Positions 30,234 through 49,560 of a stretch of 64,000 nt of DNA are shown in pieces; position 1 is the stretch's first letter, and every line of letters starts with the position of its first letter. The stretch is taken from the NCBI GenBank assembly GCA_043824495.1, contig JBDRSV010000024.1:91056-155055 (forward strand), given 5' to 3'. A model generated the notes under the pieces. It had not been told where the DNA came from. It searched no databases and worked only from the letters and a program-made list of their open reading frames with translations. Both the position numbers and the translations under genes were made by a program. This stretch comes from Candidatus Aenigmatarchaeota archaeon. GTDB lineage: Archaea; Aenigmatarchaeota; Aenigmatarchaeia; QMZP01.

Positions 30234-30240
30234 TTGTTAC

Positions 30241-30273: not shown

Positions 30274-30333
30274 CAACTTGACAATTAACGTAACATGTTA
30301 ACAATGAATACCAACAGAGAAGGAGAAAGTCAA

Positions 30334-31947: not shown

Positions 31948-31975
31948 CCCGGGTAGGCTTCAACCCCTACCCGGG
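31948..31975 (+). terminator. Hairpin terminator CCCGGGTAGG...CCTACCCGGG
   Basis: 10 bp perfect stem. Confidence 0.6.
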
Positions 31976-31976
31976 G

Positions 31977-32028
31977 TTCCAAATGAGCTCATCTAGTTCA
32001 GATATTTTCTAGGTGGGCCCATTTGGAA
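31977..32028 (+). promoter_or_regulatory. Conserved intergenic hairpin element, copy 2
   Basis: TTCCAAATGAGCTCAT...AGGTGGGCCCATTTGGAA. Confidence 0.45.
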
Positions 32029-32092
32029 TTGTAAATGATTGTTGACTGTTCAATGAGCGTTCCGAAAGGAACATTGCAAGGAGATTTTTATC

Positions 32093-32557
32093 ATGACACA
32101 GCAGATGACATCAGTACCAGATGGTTGGGGCGGAGCAGGTGGCGACAGTCTCGGCACAGATGCACTCGAGCTTCTGAAGAAAATGGGATTCGACAATGCA
32201 ATGGGACAAGCGTTGCTCGGCAGCTTTAATCCACAGGGTTTCGTGGATGCGCTTCTCACGTTCCGACCGTTCCCGGTTGGCGGAGTCTCTCCCGAAGCTC
32301 GGAACGAGAGCAGAGAAGCTCAGTGGATTTATCTCACATGGATCTTCACCAGTCGGCAGAGAGCCTCCTTTCCCGTCGAAGGGGTGAGTGGCCTTGCTGA
32401 CTTCGTGGATATTGTCCGGAAAGCACAGAGCGATGCGGACGCGAACGAACATGCAGTTCGAATCTTGTCCAGGTTTGGGTGTGTCGATCTCCTCGTTGGT
32501 GAAGGTCGGACCTTCTTGCACACGAAAGCCATCGATTTCGCTAATTCCCAAACGTAA
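32093..32557 (+). CDS. Hypothetical protein
   Basis: 154 aa with AAGGAGA upstream. Confidence 0.55.
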   Translation: MTQQMTSVPDGWGGAGGDSLGTDALELLKKMGFDNAMGQALLGSFNPQGFVDALLTFRPFPVGGVSPEARNESREAQWIYLTWIFTSRQRASFPVEGVSGLADFVDIVRKAQSDADANEHAVRILSRFGCVDLLVGEGRTFLHTKAIDFANSQT

Positions 32558-32579
32558 GTCCGCGACATCACCAACCAAT

Positions 32580-32612
32580 CCCGGGAACAAGACAGTTCAA
32601 TCTGTTCCCGGG
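32580..32612 (+). terminator. Hairpin terminator CCCGGGAACA...TGTTCCCGGG
   Basis: 10 bp perfect stem. Confidence 0.6.
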
Positions 32613-32665
32613 TTCCAAATGAGTTCATGTGGTTTGATTTCTTGACTAGGTGGGCTCATTTGGAA
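32613..32665 (+). promoter_or_regulatory. Conserved intergenic hairpin element, copy 3
   Basis: TTCCAAATGAGTTCAT...(TTGACT)AGGTGGGCTCATTTGGAA, with an 11 bp outer stem. Confidence 0.45.
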
Positions 32666-32757
32666 TTGAGTTGTAGTAGAACCATAACCCATTCACGACC
32701 TTTTGTCGACCCTGTCTGATATCAGTTCAGGGAAGAATCTAAAGGAAGGAGAATTCA

Positions 32758-34749
32758 ATGCATTCACTCCAAGAAGTAAAAGAACACATCAAGACAACGA
32801 TGTGCAAAGCGGTTCAAGTGAATCGCTGGATGATGTGGATCGCGCTCGTCGTCATATGTATTGTGGCGATTGAGTTGTTCGTTTGGTTGCCTTCACTGCC
32901 AGAAGAGGCGCAAGACGTCCTTTCCCCATTCATAGAAGGTGGAAACAGGAATGCAGGCACGTTATTACTCCACTTCTTCTGTTTCATGGGTGCATTGGTG
33001 TCTATCTTCTTCAAAATCTTCGGTCCGATCACAAGATCTTATGATAATACACTTTTCTGGGAACTCCATCTGGGTGGAACAAAAAGGATCGGATTCCGCC
33101 TGGGTGACTGGCCTACTGGTGTGTTCATTGAAGCGGCAGACGTTCTCAGTGATTTACCAGCGAATGTCAGGAAAAGAATTCCGTGCACCCAGTATGCTGT
33201 TTCTCGAATTAAAAGCGTAACGGAATTCGACGACAGCGGTAGAGCCATCGTCCCACGGGATGAGAGTGTGTCTTCTGTGAGATTCGCCACAGTGGATGAT
33301 GGTCGACCGGGAACGCTCGACTTGGATAGGGTGTTCTCCTGGGCGCATAAGTACATCCGAGGCTATTATATCTGCCTGGCCTTTACATGTCTGTTCCTGG
33401 CTTGGCCGGTGATAACCGGCTACTCGATCGCGAGCTTCATGCACGACCTCCCGGTCCAGATCCACGACATCGCTGTTGACCCATCTCAGAATTCGACGAA
33501 AGTAATCGTCAGTTCTGATCGCAATGTCCGGTATGACTCAAGAATCGAGGTTGCAGATGACTGTGTCTGCTCCCGATTCATTCTGAACATATACCCGGCA
33601 AAGTGTGATTTCCTGGAGGAGATCTTTGCCAGTGACTATGTAATGAGAGGGTATTATGGGGCTCGAACCAACACCGGGCAGCTCTCCGAAGCAACTGGAT
33701 GGAATGGTGTCAGGCAAATCAACATCAGACAAGTTGGTGACACCATCAAGATTGTACTCGGCCTGAAAGATATGGTTGAGTACGCAATGAGTCGCTCGTC
33801 AGAGCACGGCACAAAGGATCTGGTCGTTGGTCTGGACACGCCAGTCGAGTCCAAACAGACATCGGGCGAATATTGGACCGCGAACAAGTTCGCAGATCAG
33901 TACGAAGTTCCTGACAACAATGCCCGTCGCGAGTCATCGTGTGGTGAATGGAAGTCGTTCGTCAGATTTGTATCTGCGGATAGTAACAACGTATACTTCT
34001 CTGCCAGATACGGTGGAGTGTACAGAGTGGATATGAATGGATGGATTGACACGATCGTCCCAAACAACGAGGTTGATTACTACCACACGCCAGTGAGTAG
34101 CGGTAATAAACTCGCTGGCATCCATGATGGGAATGATCTCTGTATTGTGGATATGGATACCAGAAAGGTCAAGAACGTCACCCATGGACAAATATGGGAC
34201 GTCGATTGGGTCTCGGACACCGGACTCGTGTTCTGGAGAGATCTTGATGGTGTCTGTTACTACTCCCTCTCTGCGGACTCGTCTTGGTCTTTGAACAAAA
34301 AGGCCAAATTCCCATCTGTGTGTGGGGATAAGATATTCTACCTCACACACTTACGCACCCATCGGGATGAGTGGGATTCCACACTAATCTGGGAGATGAG
34401 CCTTGACGGGTCTTCCAGAACCGTAGCTAGGTTGAAGGGAGGCTACTCACACCTGAGTATGTCTTCGGACTGCTCAATTGCAGTTCTGAAAGAGCCGTAT
34501 AGTTCTGACCGCACGTGGGTCAATAGAATCAAAACATTCTCCTTCAACGACTGCATTATGACAACACTGACGGAGTGTGGTGAGTCTCCAAGGATCACTA
34601 CAGACAATCGAATTGTTTATGTCAAGTTGTATCCTGTGGAGGGGCGTGGGGATTTCAACTCGAACTCAGAAGTCCGGATCATGGATCTGGACGGCAGAAA
34701 CGACACCTTGATTGTCAACAGAGAGGAACTCCGGAAGTTTCCGATGTAA
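32758..34749 (+). CDS. Membrane-anchored protein with C-terminal TolB-like beta-propeller region
   Basis: N-terminal TM helices. The C-terminal half has repeated short beta-strand/Asp-Gly motifs resembling PD40/WD40-like repeats (weak). Confidence 0.6.
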   Translation: MHSLQEVKEHIKTTMCKAVQVNRWMMWIALVVICIVAIELFVWLPSLPEEAQDVLSPFIEGGNRNAGTLLLHFFCFMGALVSIFFKIFGPITRSYDNTLFWELHLGGTKRIGFRLGDWPTGVFIEAADVLSDLPANVRKRIPCTQYAVSRIKSVTEFDDSGRAIVPRDESVSSVRFATVDDGRPGTLDLDRVFSWAHKYIRGYYICLAFTCLFLAWPVITGYSIASFMHDLPVQIHDIAVDPSQNSTKVIVSSDRNVRYDSRIEVADDCVCSRFILNIYPAKCDFLEEIFASDYVMRGYYGARTNTGQLSEATGWNGVRQINIRQVGDTIKIVLGLKDMVEYAMSRSSEHGTKDLVVGLDTPVESKQTSGEYWTANKFADQYEVPDNNARRESSCGEWKSFVRFVSADSNNVYFSARYGGVYRVDMNGWIDTIVPNNEVDYYHTPVSSGNKLAGIHDGNDLCIVDMDTRKVKNVTHGQIWDVDWVSDTGLVFWRDLDGVCYYSLSADSSWSLNKKAKFPSVCGDKIFYLTHLRTHRDEWDSTLIWEMSLDGSSRTVARLKGGYSHLSMSSDCSIAVLKEPYSSDRTWVNRIKTFSFNDCIMTTLTECGESPRITTDNRIVYVKLYPVEGRGDFNSNSEVRIMDLDGRNDTLIVNREELRKFPM

Positions 34750-34830
34750 GCGTGTAGTTATCATTCACACCCCGCCTGGATTCAATTCCAGGCGGGGTTG
34801 ATCATGAAATAAAGAGAAGGGGAGTGTACC

Positions 34831-35835
34831 ATGATAAAAATGTTTGGTAAACTGCTCTGCGGAGTTGCCATGGTTGTAGGCGGGTTGATCGCAGTGCTAG
34901 CGACGATCACTTTCTTCGCAGTCATTGGGAACATGGTAATCGATACTTACAAAATTGGCATGCATTTCTCTCCGTTGTTACCGACAGCCTTCATCAGCCT
35001 TTGGGTCGCCGCCGTCATGCTTTGGATTACCACCCTCGGCGCGAAAGGCCTCGGATGGTCGGTATCATGCCATTTGAAATTCAACATCGGTTACGGTTCC
35101 ATGCTGCTGGGAATCGTCGGCGTAATTGTGATCCTGGGATACTACACATATCTCTTCACCTTTGCTGACATCCCAGGACAACTGGTTGTCCTCAGTATTG
35201 ACGGTATGGAGACGTTCAGTCGGGTGGAAGTTCGTCTCATGAAAATCATGGATTTGGTGCCTCTACTATTCGCATCCATTTGCACCGGATTCACCGGACT
35301 GGCTCTCTGGTGGGGACGAATACAATCAATCCGGTTTCCGTTCTCCCGTTGGTTCGGAATCGCTGTCGCGATGATTCTTGTTATTGTCATGGCAGTGCCT
35401 GTTCTTGGTCAGGCCGATTCCACAGGCTTCACTGAGGCCAAGACCCATCTTTGTGGGATGCAGATGAATTATGCTGAATATTTCGGTGAGTTGTTCGCGG
35501 CGCGTTTCGCATCCCGGGAACTTGATATCAATATCTTCGATGCCGATGAAGAGTGGATGTGGAGAATGGTTGATTCAACATTCTACCGAAGGGATACACT
35601 CTTTGCTGTCAGAGACGGGTTCTCGTCGGTATTTAATATGGCCGAAGAGAAGGCCGAGCTTGTGGCCGCGACTGATCTGGCGAGAATTGTCGGGAAAATC
35701 AGGGGAATCCCGGAAGGTGAACGCGTTCCTTTAAGGTATTGTTTCCGTGGGGGACAGTTCATCAAGAAAGATACAAACAGAGGTTACCATGCGGTTGTAG
35801 TGCAGATTCTTCCGCTGTCTGAGAATCTGGAGTGA
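34831..35835 (+). CDS. Hypothetical polytopic membrane protein with cytoplasmic C-terminal domain
   Basis: 334 aa with about 6 TM helices, and GGGGAG upstream. Confidence 0.6.
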   Translation: MIKMFGKLLCGVAMVVGGLIAVLATITFFAVIGNMVIDTYKIGMHFSPLLPTAFISLWVAAVMLWITTLGAKGLGWSVSCHLKFNIGYGSMLLGIVGVIVILGYYTYLFTFADIPGQLVVLSIDGMETFSRVEVRLMKIMDLVPLLFASICTGFTGLALWWGRIQSIRFPFSRWFGIAVAMILVIVMAVPVLGQADSTGFTEAKTHLCGMQMNYAEYFGELFAARFASRELDINIFDADEEWMWRMVDSTFYRRDTLFAVRDGFSSVFNMAEEKAELVAATDLARIVGKIRGIPEGERVPLRYCFRGGQFIKKDTNRGYHAVVVQILPLSENLE

Positions 35836-35973
35836 AACCAACATTATCCTTTCAACATTTGATGGAGGACGGGTCATGAAACTAGTCTTAAATCGTAGGC
35901 ATCTTATAGATCCCGCCAGTGTCATTGGGCCACGCGTGAACTGGTTGTTCTCCTGAATGGCCAAGAGGTTCAG

Positions 35974-36222
35974 GTGCGTCCTATCGACCAGACGATAATT
36001 CTGATCGGACGCGATCCGGAATGTGACGTAATACTCGATAATCGCGCCGTCGACTTCTTCCATGCTCACATTGATTTCGGCGAGAATTTTGTAGTAATTG
36101 ACAACGTGTCACTCAACGGCACGTTTGTCAACGGAGAAAAGGTCGAGAAAGCGGTTCTCCGTCCTGGTGATGTGATCACAATAGCCAGGTATGAGATTCA
36201 CATCCGGTCCCTCCGGAAGTAG
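35974..36222 (+). CDS. FHA-domain protein (start uncertain; domain extends upstream of the annotated GTG)
   Basis: IILIGRDPECDVILDNRAVDFFHAHI...NVSLNGTFVNGEKV...PGDVITIARYEIHI is FHA-like. The frame is open back to 35899. Confidence 0.65.
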   Translation: MRPIDQTIILIGRDPECDVILDNRAVDFFHAHIDFGENFVVIDNVSLNGTFVNGEKVEKAVLRPGDVITIARYEIHIRSLRK

Positions 36223-36250
36223 ACGACGCGATGGTAGTCTTGTTCCAATT

Positions 36251-36279
36251 CCGTACAGGTGTTTACAAAATCTGTGCGG
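36251..36279 (+). terminator. Imperfect hairpin after the last gene of block I5
   Basis: CCGTACAG (36251-36258) pairs with CTGTGCGG (36272-36279) with one mismatch, followed by GATTTGTATT. Confidence 0.45.
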
Positions 36280-36286
36280 GATTTGT

Positions 36287-36308
36287 ATTGTCTAATTAAA
36301 GGGATATA
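36287..36308 (-). repeat. Junction motif copy f (reverse complement TATATCCCTTTAATTAGACAAT)
   Basis: Read directly from the sequence. GC-rich block on the left, AT-rich DNA on the right. Confidence 0.9.
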
Positions 36309-36316
36309 AGAGTTAA
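36308..36316. repeat. 9 bp target-site duplication AAGAGTTAA (left)
   Basis: Identical 9-mer at 45467-45475, each directly abutting a terminal inverted repeat. Confidence 0.85.
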
Positions 36317-36332
36317 GGCTTTGCACAAAAAC
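36317..36332 (+). repeat. Left terminal inverted repeat
   Basis: GGCTTTGCACAAAAAC is the exact reverse complement of 45451-45466. Confidence 0.9.
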
Positions 36333-36390
36333 TCTGTTTTACACAAAAACTGTGCTTAGCCTAAAAAATTCAAGAAAAAGGAGGTGAAGC

Positions 36391-36609
36391 GTGAAAAAGG
36401 TTAAAAGTTGGAAATCTAAAGATAATAATATGATGATTACTCCAAGATTAGTGTTAATGTTCATTTTTGGACTTATTGCTATTTATGGTCTTTTTGCTGC
36501 TCTTAGTCCAGAAAGGTATATAATTCCTCTAGTTTCAGGTGAATTTGCACAAATTATTGGGTTTATTATATTTATCATAGCAGGTTATTTTTTTGTTAGG
36601 TTTAGATAA
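36391..36609 (+). CDS. Small membrane protein
   Basis: Two TM helices, a GTG start and GGAGGTG upstream. Confidence 0.45.
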   Translation: MKKVKSWKSKDNNMMITPRLVLMFIFGLIAIYGLFAALSPERYIIPLVSGEFAQIIGFIIFIIAGYFFVRFR

Positions 36610-36610
36610 T

Positions 36611-36874
36611 ATGGACAAAATACAACTTAAAAAGAATAAGATAGATCTGGAAGCTAGATATATAATGCAAGAAAGAAATGCTATTTTATTGGCCCTCCCT
36701 GCTTTACCATTAACTTCTTTTAACTTGGGTTTGTTTGTAGGTCAACTTGATCCATTAGTCTCTGCATTCATTGCTTTGGTTGTTTTTGAATATCTTTATT
36801 TTATTAAGCTTCATTTTGATCGAAAATTAAAGGATAAAATAAAAGAAATTGATGATCTGATGAGAATTACCTAA
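36611..36874 (+). CDS. Small membrane protein
   Basis: ATG 36611 follows the previous stop. Two hydrophobic helices. Confidence 0.45.
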   Translation: MDKIQLKKNKIDLEARYIMQERNAILLALPALPLTSFNLGLFVGQLDPLVSAFIALVVFEYLYFIKLHFDRKLKDKIKEIDDLMRIT

Positions 36875-36935
36875 GGCGAATTCTGACCAAAAACCCTTGC
36901 ATTGATTTATATTCCTTTCCAACTAATTCTTTCCT

Positions 36936-37589
36936 ATGACAAAACCAATCGCACTATCGGCAAGTAGCATAAGACTTTTCCTAGAGTGCCCTCGATGCTT
37001 CTGGCTGCATATAAACAAGAAGGTAAGAAGGCCTTCGGGAGCTTTCCCATCGTTGCCAGCGGGTATGGACAAGATACTCAAGATACACTTTGATGAGTAC
37101 AGGGAGAAAGGCAAGATACCAAAAGAGCTAGAAGGCAAATTCAGCGGCAAGCTTTTTGGTGATACAGAAATATTGGGTGTGTGGCGTAACAACAGAAAAG
37201 GGCTAAGACATACAGACAAAAAGAGTGGCATTATTCTCATGGGAGCGTTAGATGACCTCTTTGTCACCAATAATGGACAGTTTGCACCATTGGACTTCAA
37301 AACAAGAGGCTATCCCCTCAAGGAAGACACACATGAACACTATCAGCACCAGATGGACATTTACTCATATCTTCTAGAAAAGAACAACATGAAGACTGCA
37401 GGCTATGCAATACTCATATTCTACCATCCGAAACGTGTTACAAGCACATGCAATGTTGAGTTTAATGCAGACCCTTTGAAGGTGAAGACCAGCATAAAGG
37501 ACGGTGAGAAGATATTTTTGGATGCTGTAAAATGCCTTTCGGGGAAAGAGCCCAATCCTGGCAAGGACTGTGGGTTTTGTAGATGGTGA
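36936..37589 (+). CDS. PD-(D/E)xK nuclease, Cas4/RecB-like with Cys cluster
   Basis: N-terminal ECPRCFW, central LDFKTRGY, and C-terminal C...CGFCRW cysteines as in Fe-S Cas4/AddB-type nucleases. No CRISPR array or other cas genes nearby. Confidence 0.55.
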   Translation: MTKPIALSASSIRLFLECPRCFWLHINKKVRRPSGAFPSLPAGMDKILKIHFDEYREKGKIPKELEGKFSGKLFGDTEILGVWRNNRKGLRHTDKKSGIILMGALDDLFVTNNGQFAPLDFKTRGYPLKEDTHEHYQHQMDIYSYLLEKNNMKTAGYAILIFYHPKRVTSTCNVEFNADPLKVKTSIKDGEKIFLDAVKCLSGKEPNPGKDCGFCRW

Positions 37590-37696
37590 TTCAAATCTAT
37601 TTTCAGTGTCAAACAAACCTATTTAAATAAAACAGACCACTTTCTATTGGAACTAATTAAATATATACCAACTGAAACCAATAATTAATAGTTCAT

Positions 37697-38329
37697 ATGC
37701 TTATGGACGAACGAAAACCAGAAATAAAAATTGTAGATAGGTCATTCTTACTTTACCTTCTATCGAAGGCCCAAGAAGCTAAAGCAGAATTAGGTAGAAC
37801 CTTATTACAGAAATTTGTTTTCGCTACTGAGGTTACTACGAAAGGAAAGGGTGGTGGAGGGCTAAATTATTATATTTATAAATGGAAACATGGTCCATTT
37901 AGCAAAGAGCTTGCACAAGATAGAGAAGTTCTTCTAAAAAACAATTTAATAACAGATAGTAATGAACTTACAAAAGAAGGGCATAAAATATTATCATATA
38001 TTAATCCCATTGTTGATAAAGATTCGGAATCTAAAGCCGTAATAAGTGTAATAACTAAAACTCTTTCTGGGAGAAGCTTGTCTCATATATTAGAAATTAT
38101 TTATAAGTCCGATTTTGATCTCCCAAATGGGAAAAGAATGAAAATAAAGACAATACCAGAGGGGACTCCAATGATTTTCAGATCGGAAGAACGAGATGTT
38201 AAAAACAGATCTCTCTTCACAGAATCTACGATAGAAACACTGGCCATAATGATGAATAAGGAAAAACATTCTTCTCTTAAGAAAGCCATGTCAATGCCGA
38301 TGATAGGAGAATTCAAATATGATATATGA
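37697..38329 (+). CDS. Panacea (DUF4065/SocA)-like putative antitoxin
   Basis: LLQKFVFATEV...YIYKWKHGPFSKEL resembles the KLQKLLY...W.YGP pattern. 4 bp overlap with the next ORF. Confidence 0.4.
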   Translation: MLMDERKPEIKIVDRSFLLYLLSKAQEAKAELGRTLLQKFVFATEVTTKGKGGGGLNYYIYKWKHGPFSKELAQDREVLLKNNLITDSNELTKEGHKILSYINPIVDKDSESKAVISVITKTLSGRSLSHILEIIYKSDFDLPNGKRMKIKTIPEGTPMIFRSEERDVKNRSLFTESTIETLAIMMNKEKHSSLKKAMSMPMIGEFKYDI

Positions 38330-38724
38330 TAAAAAAAAGATTTCTTGAAACTAGCGGATTTCGTGAATTCTTCCAAAGTTTGAGCGATTTCGACAAAAAA
38401 AATGTTAAAAAAATTATAGAAAAAATAAGAGAACGTGTGGAGTATAATATACTTAAACCAGATAGTTTTCTTCGCTATGAGTTTGCAGGCACGCGGAAAG
38501 AAAGAAGAGAAAGACTTAGAGTATTCTATCGCGTGTGTGAGGAATGCCGAAGACTAGGTCATGATAAAATCGAAGGCAGATGTCACGATTGCCCAAGAGA
38601 AGACGATATCATTTGTCTTATATGGGGAGACGATATTCGAGACGATGAAACATATAAAGATAAAACAATGCTTGACAGACCAGGAGCTAAAATAGATAAG
38701 AGGTCAAATGAATTCTGTGAATGA
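38326..38724 (+). CDS. RelE/ParE-like putative toxin with an inserted CxxC...CxxC zinc-ribbon
   Basis: F..FFQSL...KKIIEKIRE...LRVFYRV...IICLIWGDDIRDDETY follows the RelE/ParE pattern, with a CEECRRLGHDKIEGRCHDC insert. Confidence 0.4.
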   Translation: MIKKRFLETSGFREFFQSLSDFDKKNVKKIIEKIRERVEYNILKPDSFLRYEFAGTRKERRERLRVFYRVCEECRRLGHDKIEGRCHDCPREDDIICLIWGDDIRDDETYKDKTMLDRPGAKIDKRSNEFCE

Positions 38725-38761
38725 ATTAATTTTTTATTTTACGGCGATTTTGGCCTAAAAC

Positions 38762-38995
38762 CTATCTATCAACAGTCTCTACCCACGGCGCTTTTCTCTC
38801 AGGCAGTTTACTTCCTTTGATCACTATCTTGAATTTTAGTGGATTAGTAATATGCTTTCTGAATTCGTCTTTCCTCATTTCTGTCAAGTGTCTGACTATC
38901 TCAACAACATTGAGTCTGTATTCTTCGCTGAATCCTTCTTTTGGTGGTTTAGGGTCCTTTATTCTAATGTCTTTTAGAATTATATCTACCATCAT
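38762..38995 (-). CDS. Hypothetical small protein (last gene of the R-M operon)
   Basis: 77 aa, co-directional with and close to the two upstream genes. Confidence 0.4.
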   Translation of the reverse strand: MMVDIILKDIRIKDPKPPKEGFSEEYRLNVVEIVRHLTEMRKDEFRKHITNPLKFKIVIKGSKLPERKAPWVETVDR

Positions 38996-39018
38996 TATAT
39001 TTGGAGCAAAGAAATAAA

Positions 39019-39324
39019 TTAGCTTTCAATTCGCGTGGGGAGCCCCGATTCTCTGAGGCGTTTTATACGTTCCTCATGAGTCATTTTACCTGTGCCTCTT
39101 TCTATAGAGTCCTTTATTTCTGTTTTAGATGCTTTGCATTCAGGACATTTGGTATGGACATCGAGCTTTTCTGGATGATATTTTGGTATCAATTTACTTC
39201 TTCCTGCAGCATGAGCTCTCCCTTCGCTATACCAATCAAGTGTTTTGGTAATATCAATATCCGCCTTTTTACAGAATGGGCACCTGATACTTTCTCTTGT
39301 AAATTCAGGTTTTGATCTTGTCAT
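39019..39324 (-). CDS. Zinc-ribbon protein
   Basis: CPFCKK...CPECK. Starts 6 nt after the R-M gene stop. Confidence 0.5.
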   Translation of the reverse strand: MTRSKPEFTRESIRCPFCKKADIDITKTLDWYSEGRAHAAGRSKLIPKYHPEKLDVHTKCPECKASKTEIKDSIERGTGKMTHEERIKRLRESGLPTRIES

Positions 39325-39329
39325 ATATC

Positions 39330-42056
39330 TTATATTTTCTCTATTATTTTCTTCTCTTCTTCTGTTATCCCGTATATTCTATATATATATGAATCTATTT
39401 CTTTGTCAATTCTTTGTATCTCATTTTCTATATGTACTCTTCTATCCGTTTTTTTGTCACCTATCTCATTTAAACTGTTATTCATAGAAATTATTTTATC
39501 AACTAAGTTAATGACATCTTTCTCTGTTTCTTTACTAACTAGTTTAATAGGAAATTTCTTCGTATTAGCAATTAGTATTTTTTGGAATAGCCTTTTTGAA
39601 GGATCTAAATATTTCTCTTTATGGTAAAAAGTCATTAGCTTTGAGTTTAAAATTGCTAGAATATATTTAATTTGATCAGAACTACCGTTCTTGGGTATTA
39701 TATTAAATCCTATTTGTGTGTTATATAACTCCTTTTCGGTATATCCAGCGTATATTTTTGGAGGTTTACCACTGATAATCTGTCTCACGACTATACGAGG
39801 TTTTAAGAAAAATCTCTGTTCTCTGGGAGCGCCTAGCCATTTCCCATAACTAATATATTCTGTTTGGTTCCATTTTATACCATATCTTATAATGCCTGCT
39901 CCAGATAAGAGGGGTTTGAAAGTTTCATTCTTTTTTGTTTCTGAATGAAAAACTTTATTTTTTATTTGATCTTGTGTATGACCTTTGTATTTATCATAAG
40001 GTGTTAATCCTAGCGAGAAATCGCACAAATCTATCAAAGGTTTTGTACCTTCTTCAATCTTTTTAATTATTTTACTTATAGTAGGATTTCGAGATATATT
40101 GATAATGTTATCACGACTCCAGTCTAGTTGATTAAATGTTGTGTATGTATTGCAATTTTCTTTGTCTATGAAACTTATCTTTTCTTCACTAGGATAAATC
40201 AAAAGTTCACATTTAGTACTTTTTGTTGGCTTCTTTTTTTGGTATATGAGTATTATGGTCTCTACTTTAGCCTTCTCAAAAACATTATCAGGAAGTCTCA
40301 CAATCTTTTTAAGAGTCGCTTCGTTTAATAGTAATTTTCTTATTTTTGAATATGATTGATTATATAGGATTGAATTCGGTATAATAAAACCGAAGTATCC
40401 TCCATTCTTTAGTAGACGGAAAGATTTTTCAACAAAAACTGAGTACAGATTCATTCTATTTTCTACTGTTTCATATGCCGAAAATAAATATTTAACAATT
40501 AGAGGATCTAGCTGTTTTATATCTACATACGGTGGATTACCAATTATAATATCAAAGGAACCTCCTTCAAAATCGTCTATCCATTTAAAAGAGTCTAATC
40601 CAGCAACCTCTTCAGCATCTATTAAACTGTTTCCATGACATATATGAGTATCAATCTCTGTGGGTAGTTTTCTTCCCTTTTCTGCAGCCTTCAGTAATAA
40701 ATTCAGTTTTGTTATTTCTACTGCTTTATTGTCTAAGTCCACACCGTAAAAGTTATTCTTAAGCATGTGTGTTTTAACTGAATAAATTCCCTGATAATCT
40801 AATCTCATTTGTTTTGCTTCTGGTTTTTGCATCATACTATTCAACAAATGATCAAAAGACTTTATTAAGAATGAACCAGAACCACACGCAGGGTCTAATA
40901 TTTTAATTTCTAATGGCTTCGTTTTTTTATCTGTTATTAACTCTCCTAAAGTGTTTCTAATAATATAATCTACTACATAAGTCGGTGTGTAATAAATGCC
41001 TTGTTCCTTTCTATGTAGTCTCGAATCTCTTAATTGAGCTTTCCCTGATTTCTTTTGATCAAGAATTAGACCCAAGTATTGCTCATAAACTTGACCTAGA
41101 ACATCAGCATCTATCCAGTCAAAATTATAAATGTATGTTTTGTCTTTCGATTCGTATAAATAATAAATTAAATTTTTAATTATAGATCCGTTGATATTGA
41201 TTGTATCACAATCATTATCTCTCGATATAGCAAACAAACCACTGTTATATACATCATCATATGTTTTGAATATTTCCTTCAGTTTTGTGTAAGCTTTACT
41301 ATCATGTAGGTGTTTTATATCGCTAAGTATAACACCATCAGGATTTATGTTTATGTCTTCACAGCGTCGAATAAATATAAGTCTGTCTAGAATTCTCTGG
41401 ACTATATCATCCTTCTCATCAATAGAATACTTTTTTGCATAGGTTTTCTCAATGTCGCTAGCAATTAAACTTCTTATAAGCATCAAATCATTAAGCAGGG
41501 TTTTATCGATAGAAACCCTTTTCTTCAATCTACCTTCATCTTCAGCTTTTTTAAGGATAATATTTTCTTCAAAACTGTTTTTTGATAAGAAAAGCAAATC
41601 TTCAAAGCTGTTGATATAATCTTCTGGGGTATTGAAAACTCGGAATTTATTTCTTATAGAATTTTCTTCCTCTACACAAAATATTCTTGTTTCTTCAAAG
41701 TTGGTTGATACTGCAAAAGGTACTCTCTTTGATAGTGCATATGATATTACTTGTTTATCCGCTTCTCTATCTAAAGATACACCAACCTTTTTGACTTCAA
41801 GAAAGAAAACAGTTCTGCCATTAATCTTAAAGGCGTAATCTGCGCGTCCTCTTTGACTTCCTCTATGTGCTTGAGACTGTTTATCAAAATCATTTCGCTC
41901 CCAACCAAGCAACTGAAAAAGAGGTTCAATTAATCTAGTTTCTGTATCAGCTTCTGACAGTTTTTTATATGATTCTTTGTCAGCGTTGAATTCGTTAATT
42001 AATTTTTGAATTTCCTCCTTAATGATCTCTTTATCCATATAATTAGAATGAAACAA
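39330..42056 (-). CDS. Type IIG restriction-modification enzyme (N-terminal PD-(D/E)xK nuclease fused to gamma-class N6-adenine methyltransferase and target-recognition region)
   Basis: GRADYAF...FFLEVKK (D...ExK), LDPACGSGSFL (motif I) and IIGNPPYV (motif IV NPPY). 908 aa. Confidence 0.8.
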   Translation of the reverse strand: MFHSNYMDKEIIKEEIQKLINEFNADKESYKKLSEADTETRLIEPLFQLLGWERNDFDKQSQAHRGSQRGRADYAFKINGRTVFFLEVKKVGVSLDREADKQVISYALSKRVPFAVSTNFEETRIFCVEEENSIRNKFRVFNTPEDYINSFEDLLFLSKNSFEENIILKKAEDEGRLKKRVSIDKTLLNDLMLIRSLIASDIEKTYAKKYSIDEKDDIVQRILDRLIFIRRCEDININPDGVILSDIKHLHDSKAYTKLKEIFKTYDDVYNSGLFAISRDNDCDTININGSIIKNLIYYLYESKDKTYIYNFDWIDADVLGQVYEQYLGLILDQKKSGKAQLRDSRLHRKEQGIYYTPTYVVDYIIRNTLGELITDKKTKPLEIKILDPACGSGSFLIKSFDHLLNSMMQKPEAKQMRLDYQGIYSVKTHMLKNNFYGVDLDNKAVEITKLNLLLKAAEKGRKLPTEIDTHICHGNSLIDAEEVAGLDSFKWIDDFEGGSFDIIIGNPPYVDIKQLDPLIVKYLFSAYETVENRMNLYSVFVEKSFRLLKNGGYFGFIIPNSILYNQSYSKIRKLLLNEATLKKIVRLPDNVFEKAKVETIILIYQKKKPTKSTKCELLIYPSEEKISFIDKENCNTYTTFNQLDWSRDNIINISRNPTISKIIKKIEEGTKPLIDLCDFSLGLTPYDKYKGHTQDQIKNKVFHSETKKNETFKPLLSGAGIIRYGIKWNQTEYISYGKWLGAPREQRFFLKPRIVVRQIISGKPPKIYAGYTEKELYNTQIGFNIIPKNGSSDQIKYILAILNSKLMTFYHKEKYLDPSKRLFQKILIANTKKFPIKLVSKETEKDVINLVDKIISMNNSLNEIGDKKTDRRVHIENEIQRIDKEIDSYIYRIYGITEEEKKIIEKI

Positions 42057-42193
42057 ATTCTAATAAGCTTTATCTTCACCAATAATTTCTGTTTCTCCTT
42101 TTCTGCCGCTGTACAAGTTCTGGTTCAGTGCGGTTCAACTTAGTTCAACTGAACTGTAGAAAACTTTATAAGCCCTATAAACAAGGATAATGT

Positions 42194-43213
42194 ATGCAAA
42201 AAAAATATTCAGCAGATTGGCTTGAAAAAGCTGAGATTGTGAAAAGAAAAATAAAGGACCTACAACTGGATCCAGAAAATGTTAGGTTTAGCCATATACC
42301 ACAAATTCATAAGAGCACAAAAAACATAGAAGAAATAATGAAGGAGGATGACGGCATCTTTGACCTTTATGATCAAATACTTTCTTCAAATGGTATTATA
42401 GAGCCTATTGTAATTGATTCAAATAATATGGTCATCGAGGGTAATCGAAGATTAACTTGTTTGAGGCTCTTGGATGACCAGGCAAAAAAAGGAGAATTAG
42501 ATGATGAAGGCATATCTAGAACCCAGTTTGAAGAGGTGCAATGCAGACTCTTGCCTAAAATAGATGACGAAACAAGGGATCTTTTCCTTGCAACAATACA
42601 TGTGAAAGGCAAGAAGCCTTGGAAAAGATTTAATAAAGCCAAGCATATATACAGGCTTAACAGAATGCACAAAATAAGTTATGACGAAATAGCAAGACTT
42701 CTTGGGATGGGAAAAGCCACCGTCCAGAGAAATGTTTCTGTTTATGTGGAGGTCAGTAAATATCACACAAGATTCTCTGACGATAAAGAATGGTTTAAGA
42801 AATTCATGCTCTATGAGCAGTTTTTTATGAGAAAAGATTTAAGAGATTTTAGAGAAGATCAAGAAAACATAAACATTTTTGCTAAATGGGTTTATTCTGG
42901 AAAATTTCAAAATCATAAAGATATTAGAAGATTATATGAAGTCCTAAATGATGAGGACTCAAAAAATGAATTTGAAAAGACAAATATGGAGAACGCCATA
43001 AAAACATTGGAAACCAAGAATCCTGAGCTCGTAGACGCTGACTTTAAGAAAATAAACGACACTATAAGTGTTTTACAAGAAATTTCAAGAGCTAAGCTCA
43101 ATGATATTGTCTCAAACCCAGAGAAAATAAAACTATTAAATTCGCTTGAGCATGAACTGAAAAACTTACTGATTGATATAGAAAGCAGAAAAGACAGCTT
43201 AAGGAAAAAATAA
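42194..43213 (+). CDS. ParB/sulfiredoxin-domain (ParB-like nuclease) protein
   Basis: LDPENVRF...IVIDSNNMVIEGNRRLTCLRLL (GxRR motif). Divergent from the R-M gene. Confidence 0.65.
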   Translation: MQKKYSADWLEKAEIVKRKIKDLQLDPENVRFSHIPQIHKSTKNIEEIMKEDDGIFDLYDQILSSNGIIEPIVIDSNNMVIEGNRRLTCLRLLDDQAKKGELDDEGISRTQFEEVQCRLLPKIDDETRDLFLATIHVKGKKPWKRFNKAKHIYRLNRMHKISYDEIARLLGMGKATVQRNVSVYVEVSKYHTRFSDDKEWFKKFMLYEQFFMRKDLRDFREDQENINIFAKWVYSGKFQNHKDIRRLYEVLNDEDSKNEFEKTNMENAIKTLETKNPELVDADFKKINDTISVLQEISRAKLNDIVSNPEKIKLLNSLEHELKNLLIDIESRKDSLRKK

Positions 43214-43214
43214 T

Positions 43215-43301
43215 GACCAGGGTGGTGGAAGGGGCGACTGACGGGTGGCCCTCCATAACTTCCTTTGTCAGGAAGCGAACACGGTAAAACGTGCCCTGGT
43301 C
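43215..43301 (+). ncRNA. GC-rich 87-nt multi-helix element (unknown RNA or DNA structure; strand assumed)
   Basis: GACCAGGG (43215-43222) pairs with CCCTGGTC (43294-43301). Inner hairpins are GGA-GGG/CCC-TCC, CTTCC-TTTGTCA-GGAAG and CACG-GTAAAA-CGTG. It stands out in AT-rich surroundings. Confidence 0.4.
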
Positions 43302-43371
43302 TTCATAATCTTAATGTTTGATTAATATTTATATGTTATTTATATATTCTTTTTCTATCTTATTAACTAAT

Positions 43372-43590
43372 CTATAGTTTCCAATAAGTAACTCCACCTC
43401 TGGTTTTACCTCTAGATAAGTACCCGCGTTTAAATAATCTCTTAAGTGTTTTATCTGCACTATGCCAACTCATTTTCGTTCTTTTCGCTATCTTATTTGT
43501 TGTTATGGGTCTCTGGGTTCTTCTAAGAAGATTAAGTATAGCAGATTCCTTTGGACTGAATCTTGAATGTCCGTTTACCATTTTAATCAC
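43372..43590 (-). CDS. Small winged-helix DNA-binding protein
   Basis: ILNLLRRTQRPITTNKIAKRTKMSWHSADKTLKRLFKRGYL is wHTH-like. Confidence 0.5.
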   Translation of the reverse strand: MIKMVNGHSRFSPKESAILNLLRRTQRPITTNKIAKRTKMSWHSADKTLKRLFKRGYLSRGKTRGGVTYWKL

Positions 43591-43849
43591 GCCTTATCAA
43601 CTTGAAGCTGACTTTAATATCTTTCTTGTCCTTAAGTGGAATTGGAGTTTCTACAGTATACTCTAAAAGATCTTCTTCAGAGAATTTTATTGCATCCGAT
43701 ATCTCTCTTGGAAACCTCACGAAAAACAAGTCTCGTGAGTCCTTGCTTATTTTTGCTGATTTTGTTATAATCTCTTTATCATATGGGAGCTCTTTTTCCA
43801 GTGATCTCTTTTTTTCAGGTTTTTCCCATTGTATGTTTTTTCTTCCCAT
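43583..43849 (-). CDS. Hypothetical small protein, overlaps the downstream wHTH gene by 8 nt
   Basis: 88 aa, in a two-gene cassette arrangement. Confidence 0.4.
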   Translation of the reverse strand: MGRKNIQWEKPEKKRSLEKELPYDKEIITKSAKISKDSRDLFFVRFPREISDAIKFSEEDLLEYTVETPIPLKDKKDIKVSFKLIRRD

Positions 43850-44027
43850 ACTTAATATATTGCATGTGTTCTTTATAAAAGTTATGGTGTATTTTTAAAG
43901 CTTTGTATGCAAAATGCAAACCTTTATAAGGATAAACATTCTAAATTACATATGTAACTTACAAACTCATAAAATATAAGGAGGTGATAACGAGACTGGC
44001 GATAAGGTATAACTTCGCCAGTCTCTC

Positions 44028-45038
44028 ATGCTTATGAAAACGAAACAACTTACTTTAGATCGAGACTGGAGCCAATATAACTTGGCCCAAACACAGGAGA
44101 AACTTCTATTCATGAGAATACTGAGTGATGCCGTTAATTCCATGAATATAGAATATACATACAAAGGCAACGGAAGACCAAGCATAGGCATAGAGGACAT
44201 GATAAAAGTCCTCGTGATAAAGGTTTTCAACGGCTTCTCGCAGAGGAGGACAATACCAGATTTGTATATGGCTAAAGGTTTAGGCTACATACCTGAAGTC
44301 CCACACTTCAATTCCATAAGCAACTACTTCAACAGCACTGAATTGACTTATTATCTTGAGCAGCTCTACAGGATATTGGCTATGCCATTCATTCCTATAG
44401 AACAGTACTTTGCTATCGATTCTACTGGTTTTGGTAAATACAATACCAATTGGACTGCCAGCAAATATAAAAACGCAAGCATGAGAAGCTTCAACAAGCT
44501 GCATATAATATGCGGAGTGCGGACAAACATAATTGTGATAGCTAAAGTGACAGATGCACACCAACACGATTCTCTTCAGTTTCCTAAGATGCTTAAGGAG
44601 ACATGCAAAATATTCACAGTAAAAGAGATCTCTGCAGACAAAGGATATCTAGCACTCTATAATGTGAATGCAGCTAAAGAATTAGGCGTAGTACCCTACA
44701 TAATGCCCAAGAAGAACACAAAGTTATATTCCAAAAAGAGATGGGTGGATGGAGAGGCATGGGATAGAATGGTACTCATGTGGAGACATAAAGAGGAAGA
44801 ATTCAGAAAACACTACCATCTGAGATCGAATGTTGAGAGCAGCTTCTCAATGATGAAGAGGAAGTTTCTTCCTTTCATAAGGAGTAAGAACCCTATTGCA
44901 CAGAAGAATGAAATTCTGGCTAAGGTTGCTTGTCACAATATATCCGTTCTTGTCCACTCAATCTTTGAATTGGGTTTAAACATAGATTTTAAAAATATAG
45001 ATTCAACAGATGAAAGGAGGGAATATTATGACGCCTGA
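44028..45038 (+). CDS. DDE transposase, IS4/IS5 superfamily (DDE_Tnp_1-like)
   Basis: FAIDSTGF, ISADKGY and the Y-x2-R-x3-E-x6-K signature (YHLRSNVESSFSMMK). Confidence 0.85.
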   Translation: MLMKTKQLTLDRDWSQYNLAQTQEKLLFMRILSDAVNSMNIEYTYKGNGRPSIGIEDMIKVLVIKVFNGFSQRRTIPDLYMAKGLGYIPEVPHFNSISNYFNSTELTYYLEQLYRILAMPFIPIEQYFAIDSTGFGKYNTNWTASKYKNASMRSFNKLHIICGVRTNIIVIAKVTDAHQHDSLQFPKMLKETCKIFTVKEISADKGYLALYNVNAAKELGVVPYIMPKKNTKLYSKKRWVDGEAWDRMVLMWRHKEEEFRKHYHLRSNVESSFSMMKRKFLPFIRSKNPIAQKNEILAKVACHNISVLVHSIFELGLNIDFKNIDSTDERREYYDA

Positions 45039-45444
45039 AGAAGGGATGAAAATATTAAACCAGTATCTAAGTGATATGAATAAATTAAGGGAGAAAAGAT
45101 ATTATGAGGGTAAAGATGAATTAAACTTACTTGATAGAAAAATAAAAACTTTCATAAATAGAGTTTTCCCAGATTATGAAGAAAGGCAGAAAGACTATTA
45201 TAGAACTGTACATGCTTGGTTTATTGCTACAATGCATGAAGAGACAGAAGAAGAAAAACAAACGGATTACATGAATCAAATAAGAAAAATGACACTATTT
45301 GTCAATACTTTGTTGGATGAATTACAAGTTTTTGGGTTGGCATCAGAAAAATTTGGACCAACAAAAACTGAGACAGAAAAAGAAATAAGCGGTGGAATTC
45401 CAGGCATTCTAAAAGGTAAATACAAACGAACTAAAAGCGAATAG
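45010..45444 (+). CDS. Hypothetical protein inside the transposon right end
   Basis: 144 aa. Overlaps the transposase 3' end and ends 6 nt before the right TIR. Confidence 0.45.
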   Translation: MKGGNIMTPEEGMKILNQYLSDMNKLREKRYYEGKDELNLLDRKIKTFINRVFPDYEERQKDYYRTVHAWFIATMHEETEEEKQTDYMNQIRKMTLFVNTLLDELQVFGLASEKFGPTKTETEKEISGGIPGILKGKYKRTKSE

Positions 45445-45450
45445 TAAAAG

Positions 45451-45466
45451 GTTTTTGTGCAAAGCC
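45451..45466 (-). repeat. Right terminal inverted repeat
   Basis: GTTTTTGTGCAAAGCC. Confidence 0.9.
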
Positions 45467-45475
45467 AAGAGTTAA
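45467..45475. repeat. 9 bp target-site duplication AAGAGTTAA (right)
   Basis: Identical to 36308-36316. Confidence 0.85.
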
Positions 45476-45513
45476 ACATAAACTATAAATAAAAGAAGAT
45501 ACAAGAAGTCCAC

Positions 45514-47034: not shown

Positions 47035-49560
47035 TTATTTTATGATATGAATTGCAACTGATTTTTCATATCCTTTTATGAAATCTTCTACCATGTCTCT
47101 TGCTGTAGTGTCTGAATGTTGTATTGGTGGATGCTTCATGAAATAAGCTGATGGACCTTCTAAGTAGCCTCCGATACCTCTATCTTTTGCTATTTTTGCA
47201 CAGCGAATACCATCTATTACTACACCAGCAGAATTTGGAGAATCTTCTACAGAAAGTCTGAGTTCTAAATTAAGAGGAACATCTCCGAATTTTCTTCCTT
47301 CCATTCTAATGAAACAAATCTTGTTATCTTTCTGCCATGGAACATAATCACTTGGTCCAATATGAATATTTTCTGGTTCTAGTGGTATTGGTAATTGAGA
47401 CTGAACAGCTTCTGTCTTGCTGATTTTTTTGCTCTTGAGTCTTGATCTCTCAAGCATGTTTAGGAAATCTGTGTTATGAACTAATATGTTTGAACAAATA
47501 AACCGTTCAAATGGTTTTGTGCTTATGTCATAAACATACACATCTTTTAATTTTATTTTTCTAATGTTTTTTATCTTAAGGAAGCGAGTATCGCCTGTAC
47601 ATAATTGTTTAATTTTTTCTCTTTCAAACTCACTTTTAACTTTATCCAATTGAGAAAGAACTATATGAGTTCTAATTGATCCGTGTTTGTACCACGTTGT
47701 TGATTTTATTTTCCATTTTTTCAAAAGTTTTATATTTGGTATTCGATGTGTTCCATAACGTTTTAATTTATTATTAGTATTGAGCATTGCCTTTTTCTTG
47801 TAATCTTGTAAAAATCCTACTTTATTTATGAACAATTCCATATCAATTTTTGATGATATTAATCCATGCCAAGCATACCCTAGTTTGCTGTTATATGCAG
47901 TTCTAGTGCTACTATATCTTTCCTTGAAAATTGTTGAATTTATTCCTAATCTCAAAAACAATGTCTGTATATCATTCAAAAGGTCACGAGAAACAGATGT
48001 CCATCTTATCTGTTTTCCTGTAACACCACCATCACCACTTAAATAACCTCTTAAAACTAATGATATTTGTCTATCTGATAAATTAAAAATCCATTCTGGT
48101 ATCCGTTTTGTATAAGCATTTCCCCCTAAACCAATAGCTAACTTAAATATTTTAGACAATATTTTTGAATGAATCCTTACACTAATACCGTCATTTCTAA
48201 CGCTATATCCAATATTAAATCTATCTGTTAAACTATCTATAAGGTACATACACTCAGGTTCAGCACCGCATGCAATTTCTATATTAGATGAACCTTCTCT
48301 ATCATAATTACCATCTGCAATCCATAAACCAACCAACTGTAAAAGATCATCTGTAATTGGGAATTTAACAGGAATTTTTATTTCAGGATGACCACGGACA
48401 TTTATATGACCGTCTGATACACCATCAACTAATAATTTATTACTATATGGACTTAGATCTATACTTTCAATTTCTTCTGATTTAGCATGTGGTAACACTC
48501 TAGGAACAGCAATATACGTTTCATTTCCTTTTAGTATTTTTACAGGGATTTCATTTAATATACCGTCATCGCTTAATGTAAAGACATTATGATCCCCTGT
48601 GATTTTTATTGTCCTACCTTCTTCGGTAGTTATTTCATAAATAGGTTCAGATACCTTATGTCGTATTAGTGCATTTATATCTGATAGGACAACGTTATAA
48701 TTATCATTTATAGTAAAACATCGCATATTTTCATTAATTTCTTTCATAATTACAATGTCTTTTCCATCAGATCTTTTCTTACCATAAAGCTCCAAATAAG
48801 AGTCTATCAAATCTCCAATTTTAACCCGCTTTAATTGATTGTTTATAACTACAGGAACCTCCTGATCTCCTGTTACACTGTTCCCCCCAGTATTCAATTG
48901 ATATGTCCTATCAATCTTTATTCCTCTATCAGAGAATAACTTTGTTAAAACTCTATGTGTAATTGTTGCACCTAATTGACTCTTAATATCATCACCAATA
49001 ATAGGAATTCCTTTTTCCTTGAACTTATCACCCCATTCAGGATTTGATGCAATGAAAACAGGCATACAGTTAATGAATCCAACACCTGCATCTAAACAAG
49101 CTTGTGCATAGAACTTAGTTGCTTCTTCACTTCCAACAGGCATGTAATTAATTAGCACATCAGCCTGACTATCCTTCAACACTTGAACAACATCCACATT
49201 TTTTTTCCCTGATTTTTTAAATCTATTATCTTCAGGATAATTATTCATATGATCTGCTACACCATCTAACACAGGTCCCATCTGAACTTCCACTCCAATG
49301 TGAGGAACATCCTTATAAAATATAGTAGTGTTGTTAGGCTTTGCGAATATTGCTTCCGACAAATCTTTATCTACCTTTCTCTCATCAATATCAAAAGCAG
49401 CTACTGGTTTAATATCAGATATTTTATATTCACCTAGAATATTATGCATTAGACCTGATACTGGTTTACTAGAATCTACATCTTTGTAATAGAATAATCC
49501 CTGAACAAGACTAGAACAACAATTACCAACTCCAGCAAATGCAACCTTTATTTCTGTCAT
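47035..49560 (-). CDS. myo-Inositol-1-phosphate synthase interrupted by an in-frame intein
   Basis: Exteins (227 + 145 aa): [16 protein letters not shown]...YQLNTGGN | [23 protein letters not shown]... are typical of archaeal-type MIPS. Confidence 0.85.
47473..48879 (-). mobile_element. Intein (469 aa) with LAGLIDADG homing-endonuclease domain
   Basis: Begins with Ser (SVTGDQ...) and ends ...ILVHN, followed by Thr+1. [12 protein letters not shown] and [11 protein letters not shown] are LAGLIDADG-type blocks. Confidence 0.8.

Follow-up and report, generated by a model that had tools for sequence, protein, structure and literature searches.

The stretch analysed here, a 64,000-nucleotide piece of contig JBDRSV010000024.1 from a DPANN archaeon, Candidatus Aenigmatarchaeota (hereafter the window), contains a 9,150-bp transposon at 36317-45466. 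We consider it very likely that this is a cargo-bearing, site-seeking element of IS903-like type whose archaeal members target promoter-like TATA sequences. It would be an autonomous unit transposon, that is, an insertion sequence (IS)-like element with passenger genes that is mobilised by a single DDE transposase. Besides the transposase gene it holds about 14 open reading frames (ORFs).

The ends of the element are defined by two pairs of perfect repeats. A 16-bp terminal inverted repeat (TIR), GGCTTTGCACAAAAAC, lies at 36317-36332 (+) and is conserved in relatives; its exact reverse complement lies at 45451-45466 (−), with 16 of 16 positions matching. Each TIR is abutted by a copy of the 9-bp target-site duplication (TSD) AAGAGTTAA, at 36308-36316 and 45467-45475 (no strand assigned; 9 of 9 positions). 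These boundaries had been proposed in an earlier sequence-only reading, and they were recovered both by direct reading and by an unbiased finder that looks around a transposase for 9-bp direct repeats enclosing an inverted repeat in which 12 or more of 16 positions match, with no assumption about the sequence of the repeat. At the window transposase the finder returned this TIR/TSD pair as its single solution, and by our own estimate its false-positive rate is about 0.003 per locus. Exact copies of GGCTTTGCACAAAAAC number two in the 64-kb window, and these are the two ends of the element. Because the similarity between the left and right ends ceases past 16 nt, the ends do not lie within a longer segmental duplication, the condition that had been named as undermining the proposal. 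The reconstructed empty site reads ...TTAAAGGGATATAAGAGTTAAACATAAACTATAAATA...; as predicted, once the element is taken out, a junction motif directly adjoins the gene 45514 promoter region. This motif, TTTGTATTGTCTAATTAAAGGGATATA (36282-36308, +), lies outside the element immediately to its left, and its last base is the first base of the TSD. The element is a genuine transposon that inserted recently and is probably active.

The sole transposase sits at the right end (44028-45038, +). It is a 336-residue protein that matches Pfam DDE_Tnp_1 (PF01609, E=1.2e-17) and, over its full length, NF033579 as its best NCBIfam model, scans that bear out the earlier assignment to a single IS4/IS5-type DDE enzyme in this position. 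Residues D131, D204 and E270 and the signature Y263-R266-E270-K277 are invariant in an alignment of 35 homologues, and the window transposase has the D, D, E residues and the Y-(2)-R-(3)-E-(6)-K spacing that define the IS5 family. The IS903 group has the same single DDE_Tnp_1 transposase with a YREK signature and the same best model, and termini of the form GGCTTTG/GGCnTTG are common to both; the first 7 nt of the window TIR are those of IS903. In sequence records, the ends of IS903B begin GGCTTTGTTGAATAAATC and GGCTTTGTTG. The nearest named IS on plasmids, ISEc35, is 1,051 bp long, with ends GGCGTTGTTG and GGCCTTGTTG and a 9-bp TSD, CTGGAGAAG; its transposase is 24.6% identical to that of the window and scores 383 bits on NF033579, while relatives of the window transposase score 99-116 bits. 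A TIR beginning GGC and a 9-bp TSD, both features of the IS903 group, are likewise found in the window element. On this evidence the transposase is a divergent sister of the IS903 group within the IS5 family. A Logan contig also bears the locus. The public annotation of the transposase, MFH1978553.1 from a 171.8-kb contig of a Candidatus Aenigmatarchaeota metagenome-assembled genome (MAG), is identical throughout its 308 residues and begins 28 codons too late, omitting 44028-44111. The residues W14, Y17, E24 and K25 are invariant in the family and lie upstream of the NCBI start, which indicates that the longer ORF is correct.

The same kind of element recurs well beyond the window. Loci with close homologues, which are labelled here with an L and a number, were fetched at 59-70% transposase identity. 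Six of them (L002, L003, L004, L005, L155 and L156) have the identical terminus at both ends and a perfect 9-bp TSD of different sequence in each case; they measure 5,487, 6,948, 2,740, 3,706, 3,616 and approximately 4,175 bp, respectively. A contig scan with a single transposase sequence confirmed no relative; when an alignment was used instead, with each species represented by one genome, the scan yielded 80 loci at 37-68% identity in DPANN archaea, Acidobacteriota, Planctomycetota, Chloroflexota and other bacteria. In these loci the unbiased finder delimited approximately 48 elements of 2.4-9.2 kb, with termini that begin GGCTTTGC-like and a transposase at the right end that reads outward. 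TSDs of 9 bp are present in about 50 relatives, and complete relatives carry 1.4-8 kb of extra genes; cargo is the rule in the family. Short non-autonomous derivatives also exist (L116, 1,120 bp; L118, 910 bp). When the left-end DNA pattern was used in metagenome and viral scans, nearly all hits were chance matches and those at L092/L116 and L118 alone were genuine. An exhaustive search gave 469 clusters at the 50%-identity level (E<=1e-30), and the family is large and, within a limited literature search, apparently undescribed.

The two ends of these elements differ in architecture. At the left end of the window element, and there only, the terminal box is repeated in direct orientation at a subterminal position (..ACACAAAAAC, 36335-36350, +), 18 nt from the first, so that copies of the TGCACAAAAAC box stand at 36324-36332 and 36342-36350. 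Family-wide, the left end has two or three direct TGCACAAAAAC boxes with an 18-nt period and the right end has the terminal box alone, sometimes plus an inverted copy. This asymmetry is conserved across the family, and it bears on how the element came to be so long. The sequence-only reading had proposed that a conventional IS of about 1.6 kb (43899-45466) used a fortuitous distal left end, capturing 7.6 kb of chromosomal DNA once. The position of the transposase at the extreme right would suit such an event, as would a weakly TIR-like sequence at 43899-43922 that had been taken for a degenerate inner repeat. However, this sequence agrees with the TIR at 10 of 16 positions and is missed by a search allowing up to three mismatches; equally good matches occur at 139 positions of the window, and about 0.9 are expected per 430 nt, which is the level of chance. 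Moreover, about 50 relatives all have the distal left end with a second box, none has an inner left end, and no form of 1.2-1.6 kb was found among these complete relatives by a finder capable of detecting one. Since the left end in the window bears the family-specific repeat at 36335-36350, it is a genuine left end, and we regard a single capture event as highly improbable. Nor is the element a composite transposon, as it has one transposase gene, one TIR pair and no inner ends.

Several members of the family stand beside one another. In a Pyrinomonadaceae MAG (L049, 2950-17746), three different elements, which measure 4,399, 4,964 and 5,398 bp, form a head-to-tail array in which one and the same 9-mer, CCTGCCATT, stands between neighbours. 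They have distinct TIR variants and are 65-72% identical in the transposase region only, and the array reads as repeated independent insertions at one exact bacterial site. At five further loci (L011, L012, L033, L046 and L051), the right end of another element precedes the left end across just a 9-bp repeat, and L007 and L023 also abut the right end of a neighbouring element in this way. Separately, in L020, a right end at 13160 is followed by TTTGGTGGG, and 5.8 kb on, at 18968, a left end comes after the identical 9-mer; these facing ends may reflect an inversion or the product of intramolecular transposition. We also observed a 2.8-kb member (L152/L153, 5263-8060) adjoining the motif (ctaagcgggatat), with a TSD that is not intact; the contig around it, with its tyrosine integrase and numerous small ORFs, is virus- or plasmid-like.

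The junction motif to the left of the element points to a regularity of target choice. That the motif is real had been claimed before and is confirmed: apart from the copy at 36282-36308, which begins 60 nt past the stop of a GC-rich FHA gene (35974-36222), unoccupied copies are found in the window at 3004, 15241, 17660, 20175 and 56967, and a weak one at 17221. The element had been described as sitting flush against this motif, which is right as to position and an understatement as to meaning, since the motif adjoins relatives in the same register and orientation. Read outward from the left end, the flanks are ATATCCCTTTAATTAGAC in the window, ATATCCCTTTTAATTGAC in L004, GTATCCCCTTTAAATGAC in L002, CTATCCCGTTAAGTTGAC in L005, TTATCCCTTTAAGTTGAC in L156 and ATATCCCGCTTAGAAGAG in L152. 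TATCCC occupies outward positions 2-7 in six of the eight elements of this close subfamily (window included), always on the side of the left end, and the target motif as a whole spans about 20 nt, (T)GTC(T)AAnTTAAAGGGATAN. In L002 both flanks bear the motif, one copy inverted relative to the other, with the 9-bp target between them. Since neither the TSDs nor the genomes are the same, the insertions of the close subfamily are independent. The junction motif is the conserved, orientation-specific target of this transposase subfamily.

More distant archaeal members follow a different rule with the same precision. In 15 of 17 such elements, an 8-mer matching TTTAWATA (at most one mismatch) starts at outward position 7 on either side, against a background of 0.32 elements per position elsewhere; the 9-bp target thus lies exactly 6 bp from the box. 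All-A/T octamers peak at the same outward position. The 6-nt spacer is usually A-rich (GAAACC, GAAACA, GAAAGT, AAAAGC), as in the archaeal B recognition element (BRE). Of 13 such flanks with enough sequence, 12 have an ORF on the TATA side that starts 24-100 nt past the TSD, a count that is only mildly supportive because ORFs are also frequent at control flanks. In the right flank of the window element, TATAAATA is found at 45485-45492, its first base 29 nt ahead of the start codon (ATG) of gene 45514. Judged from the aligned flanks, target positions are nucleotide-precise and subfamily-specific.

An alternative is that no motif is recognised, and that these positions result from a broad bias towards AT-rich intergenic DNA or from the removal of genic insertions by selection. 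IS903-type elements are known for loose flank preferences, insertions in compact genomes persist chiefly in intergenic DNA, and the bacterial relatives share no motif, all of which counts in favour of this alternative. What it does not predict is a nucleotide-exact register across independent insertions, with TATCCC at positions 2-7 in six of eight elements and always at the left end, nor a TTTAWATA peak at one position (15 of 17 elements against 0.32), nor the trio at an identical 9-mer in L049. Purifying selection alone would yield neither single-base precision nor an orientation bias, and we judge this alternative unlikely. As to what confers the specificity, the eight motif-targeting elements all have just one protein in common, the transposase; further ORFs that recur widely among them are alternative frames within its gene. 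The accessory proteins (winged helix-turn-helix (wHTH), AbrB-like, ribbon-helix-helix (RHH) and DUF2080) were considered as a common specificity factor and rejected, as they differ among the motif-targeting elements. Since the transposase alone is common to these elements, target specificity most likely resides in the transposase, which would read the flanking target DNA. A precedent for the reading of flanks is the target preference of IS903, WTTYA-N9-TRAAW (PMC2577343).

Several observations weigh against the explanation given here and should be set beside the evidence for it. With eight members the close subfamily is small; in L003 and L155 the motif is degenerate, and L152 is without an intact TSD. 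A common flank motif was sought among the bacterial members and none was found, and promoter-proximal targeting is not universal in the family. The role of an ordinary outward-facing promoter was considered for the window junction motif and does not fit, since a BRE/TATA reading would have it face backwards, into the 3' ends of genes. The window transposase scores 108 bits on NF033579 and so falls short of the 140-bit cutoff of this IS903-type equivalog model. There is no second copy of the element in the 64-kb window, and exact-match look-ups of the transposase and both flanking genes in public data returned the source contig only, with neither a second copy nor the orthologous empty site that the sequence-only reading had proposed to look for. 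Mobility is accordingly read from the structure and the relatives and not from observed movement, and the roles of regulators, hairpin and cargo described below are putative.

The cargo of the window element is dominated by genes related to defence. Its largest gene, at 39330-42056 (−), encodes a restriction-modification (R-M) enzyme with an HSDR_N nuclease, an N6-adenine methyltransferase with NPPY and a TaqI_C target-recognition domain (Pfam Eco57I 8e-38, N6_Mtase 1e-33, TaqI_C 2e-17, HSDR_N 1e-7; PADLOC REase_MTase_IIG 1.2e-93). GNPPY and D...EVK can be seen in the translation. With a predicted nuclease, gamma-class N6-adenine methyltransferase (NPPY) and target-recognition function in one polypeptide, the protein fits the definition of a type IIG enzyme. 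Its homologues are cargo in L051, L052, L060, L062 and L077. Downstream of it are two small genes (38762-39324, −) for a 77-residue protein and a 101-residue zinc-ribbon protein. A homologue of the zinc-ribbon protein (window 39019-39324, −) is found in L002 (766-1128, −); the homologues adjoin R-M genes in both elements, the R-M cargo being otherwise different, and the protein may be an R-M accessory or controller.

Toward the left end, two small hydrophobic ORFs of 72 and 93 residues (36391-36874, +) had no family match in PADLOC or PHROG scans. They are followed by a 217-residue Cas4-like PD-(D/E)XK nuclease (36936-37589, +; Pfam PDDEXK_1 4.6e-8, PADLOC Cas4 7.6e-9, phrog_31195 1.7e-44). 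We considered this nuclease as a conserved component of transposition, by analogy with TnsA in Tn7, and rejected the idea, as it is not recurrent across the family. Next is an overlapping gene pair of 210 and 132 residues (37697-38724, +), which had been called Panacea/RelE-like. This could not be sustained, as no Pfam or NCBIfam match was obtained for the pair at E<=0.01; the 210-residue protein alone resembles a candidate defence protein, with weak matches to PADLOC PDC-M19A (3.5e-6) and phrog_14939 (1.2e-7), and the 132-residue protein had no match to candidate defence families. On the other side of the R-M gene, a 339-residue protein with a ParB-like N-terminal domain and a helix-turn-helix (42194-43213, +) matches PADLOC PDC-M38A (1.1e-19) and PD-Lambda-5_A (2.6e-8) and a ParB-like PHROG family (1.5e-7). 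Between it and the wHTH gene lies an 88-nt GC-rich (53%) element, at 43215-43302 with no strand assigned, that is predicted to fold into a three-arm, cloverleaf-like structure (minimum free energy −45.9 kcal/mol, z −4.6). It is neither a tRNA by ARAGORN nor an Rfam family, either at the gathering threshold across the whole window or at E<=1 in 43150-43380, and no counterpart was found in relatives. The inventory drawn up in the sequence-only reading thus largely holds: the PADLOC scan it had called for returned type IIG, Cas4, PDC-M38A and PD-Lambda-5_A matches, and the ParB-like N-terminal domain, the small wHTH genes and the GC-rich structured element are all present.

Across the family, the cargo was surveyed in 138 non-transposase ORFs from 48 elements. 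It consists mostly of DNA methyltransferases and restriction enzymes, including N6_Mtase (7), N6_N4_Mtase (5), Eco57I (3) and HNH (3), as well as single matches to an EcoRI methylase, a D12 methylase, Tsp45I and BamHI; PADLOC type IIG systems were found in six elements. At the DNA level, the window element shares the transposase gene alone with its relatives. This last point also speaks to whether the segment could be the remnant of an integrated plasmid or virus that contains an IS, its repeats marking the replicon. Such an origin would account for the strong PHROG match of the Cas4-like protein (1.7e-44), for the ParB-like protein, a type common on archaeal viruses and plasmids, and for the virus- or plasmid-like, integrase-bearing contig in which the relative L152/L153 resides. 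Yet Pfam, NCBIfam, PADLOC and PHROG scans of the element detected no gene for replication, for a capsid or for an integrase, its boundaries are a transposase-type TIR and 9-bp TSD and not an att duplication, and identical ends bracket wholly different cargo with only the transposase gene conserved. We give this origin very little credence and retain the interpretation as a unit transposon.

Small genes and a hairpin around the transposase gene suggest that its expression is controlled. A pair of small genes (43372-43849, −), encoding a 72-residue wHTH protein (Lrs14/DUF7342-like) and an 88-residue protein, is transcribed divergently from the transposase. The pair is present in the window, L004, L012 and L155, and the L155 homologue of the 88-residue protein is weakly AbrB/MazE-like. 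A third family of small proteins beside the transposase is common to L002, L003, L005 and L011 and scores as RHH in L003 and L005. In L154 the position beside the transposase is taken by a DUF2080 protein, and DUF2080 is classed as an antitoxin-type domain (PMC10440598). The 72-residue wHTH and 88-residue proteins are probably regulators. Immediately upstream of the transposase, an 11-bp perfect hairpin (43993-44026, +) lies inside a larger predicted fold that pairs the Shine-Dalgarno region and the transposase start codon (−25.2 kcal/mol, z −5.6), and palindromes are found at the equivalent place in L002, L005, L152, L154 and L156. The hairpin probably serves translational or operator control. 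At the other end of the gene, a 144-residue ORF (45010-45444, +; weak PADLOC PDC-S35 match, 1e-4) overlaps the 3' end of the transposase; non-homologous ORFs take this position in L003, L005 and L011.

From these observations we propose a model for how the element moves. The transposase would bind the GGCTTTGCACAAAAAC boxes, of which the left end has two in direct orientation and the right end one, and the whole segment would be excised or copied and inserted via a 9-bp staggered cut. The close subfamily would take a 9-bp target directly beside the motif of about 20 nt, on the side of the left end, and this orientation bias could stem from the difference in box number between the ends. Distant archaeal members would land just upstream of an outward-facing promoter, sparing both promoter and coding sequence. 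In either case the transposase would read the flanking target DNA, possibly aided by DNA bent by promoter-bound factors. Alternatively, it might sense promoter DNA that has been bent by TBP/TFB; the guidance of Ty3 integration by TFIIIB would be an analogue. The divergent small DNA-binding proteins and the start-codon hairpin would probably keep transposition low by restraining transposase expression, and the R-M cargo could defend the host and stabilise the element.

How the family relates to described systems can now be considered. IS903-group elements are approximately 0.95-1.15 kb long and encode a transposase only. Thus, the family differs from them in size and content, with elements of 2.4-9.2 kb with passenger genes in place of one-ORF elements of about 1.05 kb; the window element measures 9,150 bp and every autonomous relative at least 2.4 kb. 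It differs further in its asymmetric ends with two or three direct left boxes, in a stricter target choice that is orientation-specific in the close subfamily, and in a host range made up mainly of DPANN archaea, Acidobacteriota, Planctomycetota and Chloroflexota. Neither IS903 nor passenger genes are mentioned in a 2026 survey of archaeal IS. With one transposase, inverted repeats, a TSD and passenger genes, the element has the attributes of a transporter IS (tIS), a class listed only for the IS1595 and IS66 families (TnCentral 2021, 10.1101/2021.05.26.445724). In contrast to those, the present family has a transposase of a different family and a cargo that is systematic and mostly concerned with R-M and defence.

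Tn7 has asymmetric ends with several transposase-binding repeats and inserts in a site- and orientation-specific manner. The present family is like Tn7-like transposons in its site- and orientation-specific insertion into 'safe' positions, its asymmetric multi-repeat ends and its defence-rich cargo, the last of which is reported for Tn7-like transposons (PMC8649781). However, no TnsA/B/C/D/E or CRISPR-based selector was detected in any ORF by Pfam, NCBIfam and PADLOC, a single IS5-type DDE protein being present instead; the TSD is 9 bp and not the 5 bp of Tn7-like elements, there is no sign of target immunity, and tandem arrays are common. The element is therefore not a Tn7-like transposon. 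Another parallel in behaviour is found in the 'dif-site hunters' of the IS1202 family (ISAjo2 type), single-transposase elements that keep a constant distance and orientation relative to a protein-binding site, by a proposed mechanism of recognising the site or the bound protein (PMC10132070). These differ in having a TnsB-like transposase, TGT...ACA ends, a 5-bp TSD, no cargo and an XerC/D target that is not TATA-like. Asgard aloposons are also cargo-carrying archaeal transposons, and some have ParB-like partition proteins. They were rejected as relatives, as their defining tandem giant genes (3,000-6,000 residues), MinD/ParA-like ATPase and tRNA-gene integration are all absent here.

The setting of the element in the window is also of interest. 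The low-GC part encodes the ribosomal proteins L7Ae, S28e and L24e, which identifies the window as archaeal chromosome. It is a mosaic in which islands of about 49% GC (1-3030, 15241-23750, 27300-36308 and 56967-59100) are set in a background of 33% GC, and the left end of the element lies exactly at the right edge of the 27.3-36.3 kb island. After each GC-rich gene or operon stands a 27-nt motif, TTTATATTGTCTA(A/T)TTAAAGGGATATA, 49-71 nt past the stop and behind a T-tract, which gives the islands a cassette-like layout of AT-rich upstream region, GC-rich gene or genes, and motif. None of the fetched loci encodes a homologue of the island proteins. With about 48% GC, the L003-L005 hosts are similar to the islands in composition. 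A second repeat, ...CAAC(C/T)TGACAAT(A/T)AAC, is found at 27343-27356, 29328-29378 and 30239-30289, approximately 25-50 nt upstream of the island start codons at 27378, 29388 and 30295, and may serve the islands as a promoter or leader motif of their own. Elsewhere in the window, precomputed Pfam annotation shows a myo-inositol-1-phosphate synthase gene (47035-49560, −) split by an intein with a LAGLIDADG homing endonuclease.

A broader and more speculative scheme, which we hold to be possible and somewhat doubtful, would unite these observations. In it, archaeal members home to the basal promoter, placing the 9-bp target exactly upstream of BRE/TATA, perhaps guided there by the bending or marking of DNA by TBP/TFB, as a prokaryotic counterpart of Ty3 and TFIIIB. 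One subfamily would have been retargeted to a lineage-specific, promoter-like 20-nt motif at the 3' ends of GC-rich, horizontally acquired cassettes in Aenigmatarchaeota, and the family would be an unrecognised, widespread vehicle by which DPANN archaea and several bacterial phyla receive R-M and defence genes at safe sites.

If the picture of the family drawn here is true, the catalogue of IS with built-in cargo would extend to the IS5/IS903 lineage, where none is currently listed. One small DDE transposase would then provide a simple, protein-only form of targeting that is accurate to a single nucleotide and, in one subfamily, orientation-specific, which would be of interest for understanding how DDE enzymes choose their targets and possibly as a tool. 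The junction motifs of the window gain a first functional handle, as preferred landing pads of a transposon subfamily. The mobile elements of DPANN archaea are poorly known, and their tiny genomes offer few harmless places for insertion; a common vehicle for R-M and other defence genes in these organisms would have been identified.

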